From: a virus | UHGV virus genome: UHGV-0195094 | Length of the DNA: 17,065 nt | Direction: 5' to 3' (one strand) | Shown here: positions 36 through 17,065 of the stretch, in pieces | Position numbering within the stretch: position 1 is the first letter of the stretch | How the letters are laid out: each line of letters starts with the position of its first letter | Position numbers and translations under genes: made by a program | The notes under the pieces: generated by a model | What the model was told of the DNA's origin: nothing | The model's input: the letters and a program-made list of their open reading frames with translations, nothing else | The model's database searches: none

Positions 36-64
36 ATTATATCATACATACCTCGTACTGTCAA
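36..64 (-). promoter_or_regulatory. Consensus SigA/sigma70 promoter facing the left genome end
   Basis: Minus strand reads TTGACA (64-59), 17 nt, TATAAT (41-36), with an extended -10 TG (TGATATAAT). Confidence 0.8.
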
Positions 65-266: not shown

Positions 267-548
267 ATGAAAGAAATTAATCAGTACACAAAGATAGGGC
301 AAGAGTTGTTAGCACTGGCTAGGCGAAATGAGGGCTTCGATCTATCAGATGTATATAACAACCCAAGTTATTCAAAAAGACAAACATATGAGAGATATGT
401 TTGTGAGGCACTTGACGACGGTGATATACGCACTTTTCACATTTGTTCACATAACACTTTTAGTTTCACCTGTGCGTGGGATTCAAAAGACGGCGTTCGC
501 TATAGCACTTCGCAAAATGATTACTTGATAAAGGGAGCGACATTATAG
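267..548 (+). CDS. Hypothetical early protein (93 aa)
   Basis: ORF with a strong SD (AAGGAG) upstream and the first substantial ORF after the early promoter. No family recognised. Confidence 0.8.
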   Translation: MKEINQYTKIGQELLALARRNEGFDLSDVYNNPSYSKRQTYERYVCEALDDGDIRTFHICSHNTFSFTCAWDSKDGVRYSTSQNDYLIKGATL

Positions 549-606
549 GTGTAGCGATAGGCGCTATCCCAGTTTCAACGCTGGGACACCTTTCCGGCAT
601 CAGCCG
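547..606 (+). ncRNA. Compact structured RNA element: three-way junction plus small hairpin
   Basis: AGGTG(547-551)/CACCT(587-591) closes TAGCG-ATAGG-CGCTA (552-566) and TCCCAG-TTTCAACG-CTGGGA (567-586) with no unpaired junction bases. CGGC-ATCA-GCCG follows (595-606). It is a GC-rich island in AT-rich intergenic DNA. Strand assumed from the flanking genes. Confidence 0.55.
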
Positions 607-639: not shown

Positions 640-921
640 ATGAGAGAAAGAATGGTCACAAGAACAGTAACACAGACAACAGCAAAGGTTATGTGTTTAA
701 ACGTAACAACGGCAGAGGTAACTATCAACGAGTACACAATAGGCGGAACGTATACAGACTCAGATTTGCTCAAGAAATGCAAGAAACTTTTCGAAACAGA
801 CGAGTTCAAACTGGTTCACATTGAATCATCAAAAGTAGAAGAGATTCTACTGGGAATGACAGAAGAGGATTTTATCCGCTATGCAACCGTCTTACCACCA
901 AGGAAAGCACAGGGTGATTGA
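640..921 (+). CDS. phi29 p6-like dsDNA-binding protein, paralog A (93 aa)
   Basis: SD AAGGAG. The N-terminal MVTRTVTQTT and C-terminal LLGMTEEDFIRYATV resemble the phi29 p6 pattern as recalled (MQREITKTT...YELPVEKFLEVATV). Clearly similar to 1504-1800. Confidence 0.7.
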   Translation: MRERMVTRTVTQTTAKVMCLNVTTAEVTINEYTIGGTYTDSDLLKKCKKLFETDEFKLVHIESSKVEEILLGMTEEDFIRYATVLPPRKAQGD

Positions 922-1255: not shown

Positions 1256-1284
1256 TTGACAAAAATTCGTCTTTCTGATATAAT
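1256..1284 (+). promoter_or_regulatory. Consensus SigA promoter for the ncRNA / replication operon
   Basis: TTGACA (1256-1261), 17 nt, TATAAT (1279-1284), with extended -10 TG. Confidence 0.88.
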
Positions 1285-1321
1285 TAATAATGTCAGAAGA
1301 ACATATTTGCTCAATACAAAA

Positions 1322-1348
1322 AGGGTGGCTTTCAAATACAGCCACCCT
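1322..1348 (+). other. GC-rich hairpin in the leader of the tRNA-like RNA
   Basis: AGGGTGGCT-TTCAAATAC-AGCCACCCT, a 9-bp perfect stem. Confidence 0.7.
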
Positions 1349-1356
1349 GACCTCCA

Positions 1357-1441
1357 GGGTGGTTCGTCTAGCTGGGAAAGGCATTCAGAAAGTAAACGGG
1401 TTTGGCACTGAAAAATGTGGGTTCGACTCCCACATCACCCT
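1357..1441 (+). ncRNA. tRNA-like RNA: full cloverleaf with a 19-nt loop in place of the 7-nt anticodon loop, no encoded CCA
   Basis: Acceptor GGGTGGT(1357-63)/ATCACCC(1434-40). T8 present. D arm GTCT-AGCTGGGAA-AGGC. Anticodon stem TTCAG(1384-88)/CTGAA(1408-12) with loop AAAGTAAACGGGTTTGGCA. Variable region AAAT. T arm GTGGG-TTCGACT-CCCAC. Discriminator T1441. Confidence 0.85.
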
Positions 1442-1503
1442 TTAGCACTAAAAGTGCTAGTAACAATAAATACACACTATAAAAAAGAAAGGAAGTAAAA
1501 AAC

Positions 1504-1800
1504 ATGGCAAGAGTACCAATGGTTACAAGAACCATCACAACAACAAAAGCAATTGTAATGTGCGTAGATGTAGAAGCGGGAGAGCCTTTTAACAAGGAAG
1601 TAACAGTCCCACGCACCTACAAAGATAACGATTCTTTACTGAAAACAGTAAAGCCAATCATCGAGACTGAAACGGTAAAAGCGGTTTACATCGTGGACAA
1701 AACAGAGATCGAAACTCTGTACGGAATGACCGAACAGGAGTTTATCGAACACGCAAAAGTATTACCAGAAAGAACAGCTAAACCCGAAAAAACAGAATAA
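1504..1800 (+). CDS. phi29 p6-like dsDNA-binding protein, paralog B (98 aa)
   Basis: SD AAGGAAG. Motifs MVTRTITTTK...LYGMTEQEFIEHAKVL. Sits immediately upstream of SSB-TP-polymerase, the position of gene 6 in phi29. Confidence 0.78.
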   Translation: MARVPMVTRTITTTKAIVMCVDVEAGEPFNKEVTVPRTYKDNDSLLKTVKPIIETETVKAVYIVDKTEIETLYGMTEQEFIEHAKVLPERTAKPEKTE

Positions 1801-1821: not shown

Positions 1822-2175
1822 ATGATTAATATTATCTCAAATCAGGAATATAATGACATCGAGAAATATCTTATGACTATTTCACCATCAATAGAGAGTA
1901 TGAAAAATTTACCAGACGGTGAAAAGATCCCGGTAAAGAAATACATGATTTTTCAGGATGTGAAAGAAAATACAGGCGAAACAGTAGAAATCTTATCAAT
2001 TCTCACACCAGATAACAAAGTATACTCTGCCCAGAGCGGAACGGTAAAGCGTTCATTCAATGATATTGTAAATATTATGGGTGATAAGCCGTTTACCATC
2101 ATCAAAACATCTGGCAAGACAAAAGCCGGTAGAGATTTTATCAATTGTATTCTTGATGTAGAGTCAATTGCATAA
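1822..2175 (+). CDS. Single-stranded DNA-binding protein (phi29 p5-like, 117 aa)
   Basis: SMKNLPDG, DNKVYSAQSGTV and SGKTKAGRDF match recalled phi29 p5 motifs (SFKNLPDG, DGSLYSAISKTV, QGTSSKGNVF). SD GAGGAG. Synteny fits. Confidence 0.85.
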   Translation: MINIISNQEYNDIEKYLMTISPSIESMKNLPDGEKIPVKKYMIFQDVKENTGETVEILSILTPDNKVYSAQSGTVKRSFNDIVNIMGDKPFTIIKTSGKTKAGRDFINCILDVESIA

Positions 2176-5485: not shown

Positions 5486-5492
5486 AATTCTA

Positions 5493-5603
5493 TATCTATA
5501 ACTTATGCAACATCAAGTGCGCTCAGCGAAAACGACAAATCATCCAGCACTATCTTTCAAGTGTGCTACCTGAATGACTCACTTGTGATAACATAAGAAG
5601 ATA
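5493..5603 (-). ncRNA. Candidate prohead RNA (pRNA)-like structured RNA
   Basis: Minus strand forms a long interrupted helix (TATCT/AGATA, CTTATGT/GCATAAG, CAAGTG/CACTTG) into a three-way junction. One arm is AGTCATTC/GGATGATT + AGGT bulge + AGCAC/GTGCT hairpin. A TGT linker leads to a short CGTTT-TCGCT-GAGCG hairpin. G-U pairs favour the minus strand. Confidence 0.6.
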
Positions 5604-5605
5604 CC

Positions 5606-16941: not shown

Positions 16942-17065
16942 TGATTTGTACTAAAATGTTGCACAAGAATTGCACTGAATGTTTGTGCATATTTTACCTA
17001 TTGACGGTACAAAGGATGTGTGGTATAATGGGGAAATGAGAACGGGCATTTTATCTTAAAGGGGC
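16942..17065. repeat. Right inverted terminal repeat (ITR)
   Basis: Reverse complement of 1-123. The terminal 35 bp are perfect. Confidence 0.97.
17001..17029 (+). promoter_or_regulatory. Consensus SigA/sigma70 promoter facing the right genome end
   Basis: TTGACG (17001-06), 17 nt, TATAAT (17024-29), with extended -10 TG. Confidence 0.8.

Follow-up and report, generated by a model that had tools for sequence, protein, structure and literature searches.

A non-decoding tRNA-like element upstream of the p6 and SSB genes of phi29-like phages and its possible role as a processing signal in the early transcript

What purpose does a tRNA cloverleaf serve in a small phage genome when its anticodon arm is unfit for decoding? 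The question is raised by UHGV-0195094, a viral DNA of 17,065 nt analysed here over its whole length (the window), in which such a cloverleaf (1357-1441) stands upstream of the genes for a p6-like double-stranded DNA-binding protein and a single-strand binding protein (SSB). With inverted terminal repeats at both ends, the window represents the complete genome of a phi29-like phage. As judged by sequence comparison, the cloverleaf is real, conserved, non-decoding and family-wide. A preceding sequence-only reading had described it as a non-decoding tRNA mimic of several conceivable functions; neither its membership in a family-wide set nor a second copy at 547-592 was part of that description. 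Among those functions, the best supported is that of an RNase P/RNase Z processing module for the p6-SSB mRNA.

The acceptor is formed by 1357-1363 paired to 1434-1440 (7 bp including one G-U), followed by U8 at 1364, a D stem (1366-1369/1379-1382) with A14 and GG in its loop (1370-1378), an anticodon stem (1384-1388/1408-1412), a variable region of 4 nt, the T arm (1417-1433) and a discriminator U at 1441; the arms lie where the sequence-only reading had placed them. The element thus has the 7-bp acceptor, D arm and T arm of a tRNA with their conserved bases, and is without a 7-nt anticodon loop bearing Y32, U33 and purine 37. Instead, 19 nt (1389-1407) separate the two strands of the anticodon stem. 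These probably do not form an open loop, since an inner stem of 4 bp (1390-1393/1400-1403) is kept in 13/13 distinct sequences of the window clade. The sole variable site is a G-C/G-U exchange, and the evidence for this stem is weak because the region hardly varies. ARAGORN found no tRNA in the window without its intron option and, with it, called a tRNA-Pro(TGG) with a 12-nt intron at the element, so that the intron call foreseen by the sequence-only reading was obtained in that mode only. An Rfam scan of the whole window returned nothing at E<=1, RF00005 included. Folded by themselves, the 85 nt are no more stable than shuffled sequences (z -0.49); as the folding energy is unremarkable, the case rests on comparison with relatives.

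SSB-anchored searches yielded 164 usable loci, 156 of them with enough upstream DNA. Copies from IMG/VR and metagenomes overlap, and the loci are partly redundant (116 different polymerases remain). A descriptor consisting of a T arm followed by an acceptor strand matched 329 times in the 367 kb of early sense strand of these 156 loci (0.90 per kb), compared with 25 matches on the antisense strand (0.07 per kb), 16 in 459 kb of downstream sequence (0.035 per kb) and 79 in 1,102 kb of shuffled sequence (0.07 per kb). Individual loci contain 0 (3 loci), 1 (44), 2 (45), 3 (61) or 4 (3) matches, a few of which are due to chance. A tRNA-shaped element lies just before p6 in 152/156 loci. The 92 distinct p6-proximal elements range from 47 to 119 nt, and CCA is encoded in none of them (0/92).

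Throughout these 92 elements, all 12 pairs of the top half vary and yet stay paired (719/732 cells vs. 455 after column shuffling), a count that is partly circular, as the descriptor required pairing. Alignments made by sequence alone give the same picture. The 13 sequences of a 117-119-nt type show two-sided changes at 11/18 pairs. In the window clade (14 members, 13 distinct), 99.6% of 507 structure cells pair and two-sided changes occur at 6/39 pairs, three of them in the acceptor and three, as compensatory pairs, in the upstream hairpin (1322-1348). In none of 500 shuffles was covariation as high. Both hairpins reported to flank the cloverleaf, at 1322-1348 and 1443-1459, are present.

The anticodon arm follows a different course, as it may be missing, contain a 15-24-nt loop, form a bulged stem or be exchanged for a multi-hairpin domain, with replacements of up to ~60 nt. 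In the homolog comparison proposed earlier, acceptor and T stems covary around an arm of variable length. Rfam scores four relatives as tRNA with inserts of 14-55 nt and a fifth, L013, as a tRNA without insert; relatives reach 41-51 bits with RF00005. The intron mode of ARAGORN made 86 calls in 163 loci; these are artefacts, because 15 isotypes were assigned to one slot. Within the window's type the same long arm is found in all 16 loci, and no relative of this type carries a 7-nt loop, which upholds the non-decoding character claimed for the element. In the window clade the arm is also the most conserved part (1/29 columns vary, vs. 7/15 in the acceptor strands and 13/16 in the tail). Contig L001 ends in a partial copy, outside the clade alignment, with two further changes, one of which breaks an anticodon-stem pair. 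BLASTN of the window element against cultured phages returned short matches only. Two variants of the slot deserve mention. In L044, L050 and 26 similar loci, an AU-rich element of 68-71 nt precedes p6, in which the T loop has G55 but U54, C56 and A58 are kept. In a 15-kb phi29-like contig (L013), the slot that otherwise holds non-decoding elements contains a canonical tRNA-Ile(UAU) at 577-650, possibly the ancestral state.

Smaller relatives of the element occur elsewhere in the early operon. They measure 37-51 nt and consist of an acceptor, a short D-like part and a T arm; acceptor and T stem have 7+5 bp (41) or 6+6 bp (75), the stacked helix being 12 bp in both forms. Among distinct distal matches, 100/108 are intergenic and most lie 35-65 nt 5′ of a start codon. 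The copy in the window overlaps the stop codon of the open reading frame (ORF) 267-548 and, together with its trailer hairpin, has a folding z of -3.44. Such a trailer, which was not part of the search descriptor, begins 0-3 nt after the discriminator in 97/98 large elements and within 6 nt of it in 30/40 and 63/68 small elements (shuffles ~5%). Both p6-like paralogues of the window (640-921 and 1504-1800) have their own tRNA-like element and trailer hairpin ahead of them.

The reading we favour, with modest confidence, is that the 85-nt element would act as a cutting signal for host RNase P and RNase Z in the phage early transcript. RNase P would cut before G1357 and RNase Z would then cut after U1441, so that the p6-SSB mRNA would begin with the hairpin 1443-1459 and be shielded from 5′-to-3′ decay. 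Hairpins at the 5′ end protect mRNA from RNase J1. Cutting would free the leader and the insert-bearing tRNA-like body as small RNAs, and the short copies would split the remaining early operon in like manner. This proposal is based on the kept fold, the intergenic position on the sense strand, the absence of CCA and the hairpin that follows at once. A wastewater run of uncertain type, from which two 151-nt contigs were obtained, speaks neither for nor against expression. The features recognised by bacterial RNase P are the stack of acceptor and T arm and the D and T loops, with a preference for U at -1 (excerpt of PMC4919922). In B. subtilis, CCA-less precursors are substrates of RNase P in vivo; RNase Z acts afterwards, past the discriminator, and is inhibited by long 5′ leaders (excerpt of PMC1874595). 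Some phage RNAs and mRNAs are likewise cut by RNase P (excerpt of PMC11143913). The parts kept across the family are those that the two enzymes read and the parts lost are those not needed, which supports processing. The substrate features are mixed, the 12-bp helix and the absence of CCA being present and the bases at -1 and 74 less favourable (see below). The T-arm motif within a tRNA-like fold, beside a gene boundary and on the transcribed strand, by which the t-elements of plant mitochondria are recognised, is found as well.

Several observations weigh against this proposal, in addition to the partial circularity of the pairing count. The window has A at -1 rather than the preferred U, and the U-1 of 64/92 large elements stems mostly from two large types. 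C74, present in 43/92 large elements, may slow RNase Z. In the lowest-energy fold of the precursor, the 5′ strand of the acceptor is engaged by the upstream hairpin and not by the cloverleaf. Of the 102 small elements that have an ORF end close by, 21, among them that at 547-592, are placed such that cleavage at +1 would remove part of the preceding stop codon. Plant t-elements do yield ends internal to reading frames (excerpt of PMC1920247), but in a bacterium such a cut costs protein. Finally, a pure cutting signal accounts neither for an insert that varies less than the acceptor stem nor for the swapping of inserts between phages.

These last points lead to a second possibility, which we regard as tentative: the excised tRNA-bodied RNA may itself be the selected product, with a swappable insert whose trans-acting target would be an mRNA, a tRNA-binding protein or a defence of the host. 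It is compatible with cutting by RNase P and RNase Z, which would merely be its route of production. A combined form, to be viewed with the same reserve, is that these phages run tRNA punctuation while the slot before p6 serves as a natural scaffold, under a strong promoter, for exchangeable cargo of at least six types that is swapped like anti-defence genes. Besides the near invariance of the insert in the window clade, the perfect promoter ahead, the tRNA-Ile(UAU) in the L013 slot and the tRNA-like stable RNAs annotated in phage T5, the distribution of the inserts speaks for such cargo. In the polymerase tree (117 rows), the type found in the window forms a single clade (10 rows, support 94). 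The 117-119-nt type is scattered over the tree, requiring 17 changes for 19 rows, at least 4 of them forced by well-supported branches (131/500 shuffles were as low in changes). Its insert core (at least 9 invariant bases) is found on three different tRNA bodies, and a search with the insert pattern gave matches in 11 contigs, all of 15.7-17.5 kb. Moreover, phages with 99.8%, 99.3% and 98.2% identical polymerases bear different insert types. However, mosaic recombination alone, including that of neutral alleles, can scatter types, and the small copies are left unexplained. Armless elements suffice in several clades (15/152 loci, some with an uncertain acceptor start) and also in the L011 clade, where they occupy the p6 slot in 14/14 loci. 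No target was found either: an antisense search of 256 loci gave no complement of the window insert, and no insert from 12 loci matched Rfam. A link to type III antitoxin RNAs, also considered, has no support in the available part of PMC4627078.

A less probable alternative is that the element stays unexcised. The fold and its trailer hairpin would then form a roadblock to 5′-to-3′ decay, or a cut by RNase P alone would leave a tRNA-like cap at the 5′ end. Either would account for the small copies that overlap stop codons, for C74 and for variants of the T loop (UGC-type loops in 28 loci; 6-nt loops). A cut by RNase Z agrees better with the strictly kept 12 bp, with the absence of CCA from 92/92 elements and with the separate hairpin right after position 73, and we consider a roadblock or cap unlikely.

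A decoy for anticodon nucleases or other tRNA-targeting anti-phage enzymes, as put forward in the sequence-only reading, would be in keeping with the intact tRNA body, the strong promoter and an allele turnover resembling an arms race. It is nevertheless very improbable: it is the anticodon arm that members of the family have lost or replaced, many elements being without it, and a 7-nt anticodon loop occurs in no type but that of L013. Decoys for enzymes that read the acceptor end or the elbow are counted under the trans-acting cargo above. Equally little speaks for a conformational switch, in which the 3′ arm of the upstream hairpin would compete for the 5′ strand of the acceptor and so gate processing or p6 expression. 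The 5′ arm of the window hairpin is indeed nearly identical to that strand, and folding predicts the alternative structure as the minimum, but the other clades inspected do not share this identity and the hairpin is complete before the acceptor is transcribed; we give this explanation hardly any credence. The remaining one, an intron-containing tRNA-Pro(UGG), a decaying tRNA gene or an assembly error, is largely refuted and most improbable: ARAGORN's Pro(TGG) call and the broken stem pair in L001 stand against 15 isotypes called at one locus, 0/8 ways of removing 12 nt that give Y32, U33 and purine 37 together, a U73 and G1-C72 foreign to proline identity, and covarying stems with the same arm recurring in 16 loci; the proposed Pro(UGG) loop is not supported. 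A phi29-type prohead RNA (pRNA; a ~117-nt junction with two complementary loops) was also rejected as an identity of the element, which shrinks to 47 nt in relatives; a separate conserved candidate lies at 5490-5605 on the minus strand.

The closest known counterparts of the cutting signal proposed here are the plant mitochondrial t-elements (Forner et al., 2007, PMC1920247, in excerpt), T-arm-containing tRNA-like folds that also adjoin genes. At their borders, RNase P and RNase Z generate mRNA ends, some of them inside reading frames. Unlike the t-elements, the phage elements belong to an early operon, occur up to four times per genome end, are each followed by a trailer hairpin, include one with an exchangeable insert, and are known from sequence alone. 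The mammalian mascRNA and menRNA (RF01684; excerpt of PMC10424219) are likewise small, non-aminoacylated, tRNA-like and cut from a long transcript. One match to RF01684 was obtained among 12 loci, the small element of L031 (32.1 bits, E 0.014, below the gathering score of 42.5). In contrast to the phage elements, these RNAs are 3′ ends of long non-coding RNAs, and the resemblance is likely convergent. RNA1 and RNA2 of phage T5 (NC_005859), compared by annotation, are described as 'tRNA-like stable RNA with unknown functions' and, as here, are phage tRNA shapes not annotated as decoders; they belong to the tRNA gene cluster of a 122-kb phage, whereas the present elements punctuate the protein genes of 14-18-kb phages with almost no tRNAs. 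The YrlA group of bacterial and phage Y RNAs shares the mimicry of D arm, T arm and acceptor, and one member is cut by RNase P and given CCA; these RNAs adjoin a Ro60 gene and bear a Ro-binding helix (Chen et al., 2014, PMC4201824, in excerpt). No Ro60-like match was seen among the 20 window proteins compared with PHROGs, and no Y RNA match in Rfam. The engineered tRNA scaffold of Ponchon and Dardel (cited in PMC7961669, in excerpt) carries foreign RNA in the anticodon stem of a tRNA body; it is man-made, whereas the phage version is natural and its cargo role putative. As to the origin of the body, the Glu-type scaffold suggested earlier is borne out in the D-arm start and 4-nt variable region, which match two clostridial tRNA-Glu(CTC) genes (only 2/41 sampled genomes yielded one), and not in the acceptor and anticodon arm, which differ; the bodies of other types in the family are different. 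For phi29-like phages, neither Rfam 15 nor literature searches gave any record of intergenic tRNA-like elements that recur and have trailer hairpins, although the gut-phage candidate RNAs listed by Fremin et al. (2023, PMC10690425, available in part, with unreadable alignments) may include them unnamed.

tRNA punctuation is already on record from mitochondria and from MALAT1; its repeated use, in pared-down form, between the early genes of a phage family would carry it into bacteria. If the proposal is true, the small copies would be natural minimal substrates of RNase P and RNase Z, of 37-51 nt and including a 6+6-bp form. The swappable inserts would provide a small, clean system for asking what role the long-annotated tRNA-like RNAs of phages have.

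The nearest cultured phages are CS229P1-3 of Clostridium symbiosum (polymerase identity 67.5%, SSB 38%). The host is deduced from these cultured relatives only, because no CRISPR-spacer-like match stood out among 399 scored genomes (class of G002). Cultured CS229P1 and CS229P2 have a 53-nt armless element directly after a stop codon and before p6, and the pair CS229P2/C. symbiosum therefore makes the processing claim directly testable. Elements are also present in two faecal contigs. A descriptor scan revealed none in CI644P4, CI461P1, phiCP7R, Athos, three distant faecal contigs and L253; phi29 and Av-1 gave single matches inside genes that were judged to be chance. The L009/L010/L012 group has no element, and neither has a related clade with another gene order (0/62 loci). 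In the latter, a weak hairpin directly at the promoter starts the p6 transcript in 37/41 evaluable loci, the other 21 not being evaluable for it; this counts in favour of the cutting-signal proposal. A different, structured-looking intergenic stretch occupies 728-924 of L010, in the early region of a clade that lacks the element. In the large related clade L309-L374, p6-SSB lies downstream of the polymerase gene and the tRNA-like element before p6 is absent.

The features of the window are listed in Table 1. Comparison of its 20 proteins with PHROGs identified a protein-primed DNA polymerase, the SSB, two p6-like proteins, and head, tail and collar proteins; the packaging ATPase gene is on the minus strand. 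The p6-like gene 1504-1800 has its ribosome-binding site at ~1489-1495.

Table 1. Coordinates of the tRNA-like elements and neighbouring features in the window
Feature	Position	Strand	Remarks
Large tRNA-like element	1357..1441	+	7-bp acceptor, D arm, T arm, U73, CCA not encoded
Extended anticodon arm (insert)	1384..1412	+	5-bp stem, 1x4 internal loop, probable 4-bp inner stem, 6-nt loop
Predicted 5′ leader, ~66 nt	1291..1356	+	putative start; conserved first half, hairpin 1322-1348, C-rich spacer 1349-1356
Trailer hairpin	1443..1459	+	1 nt after discriminator of large element
Small tRNA-like element	547..592	+	6-bp acceptor + 6-bp T stem (12 bp), D-like hairpin, anticodon arm absent
Trailer hairpin of small element	595..606	+	ahead of second p6-like gene
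Sigma-A type promoter	1256..1284	+	12/12 consensus with TG extension; extended -10
p6-like dsDNA-binding protein gene	1504..1800	+	phrog_6370, E 2e-5
phi29-type single-strand binding protein gene	1822..2175	+	PF17427
Second p6-like gene	640..921	+	phrog_6370, E 6e-5; downstream of small element

The promoter that had been noted ~70 nt upstream of the cloverleaf is indeed there, 72 nt 5′ of it, and is predicted to drive the leader, the large element, p6 and SSB; promoter-like motifs occupy the equivalent place in the representative relatives inspected. The leader of relatives follows a common plan. A short motif, which in most other clades has TTGCCA as its end, is followed by a hairpin that covaries and by a tail rich in C, with C at -4 to -6 in 62-71 of the 92 distinct large elements. 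Once released by RNase P, the leader could act as a small RNA by pairing with ribosome-binding sites; inspection of representatives by eye indicates that the C-rich spacer and the p6 ribosome-binding site could pair in some clades only.

At the left end of the genome, another 12/12 promoter match (36-64, minus strand) is directed outwards with no room for a gene, and a similarly strong match at 17001-17029 is directed out of the right end. Directly after the stop codon of the packaging ATPase gene, the minus strand contains a structured RNA of ~116 nt (5490-5605) followed by a terminator-like hairpin. It has no Rfam match. In aligned relatives (80 loci, every second distinct row viewed), a long helix closes the structure and the loops of two hairpins inside it are complementary to each other, which makes the RNA a candidate for the pRNA of this phage group.
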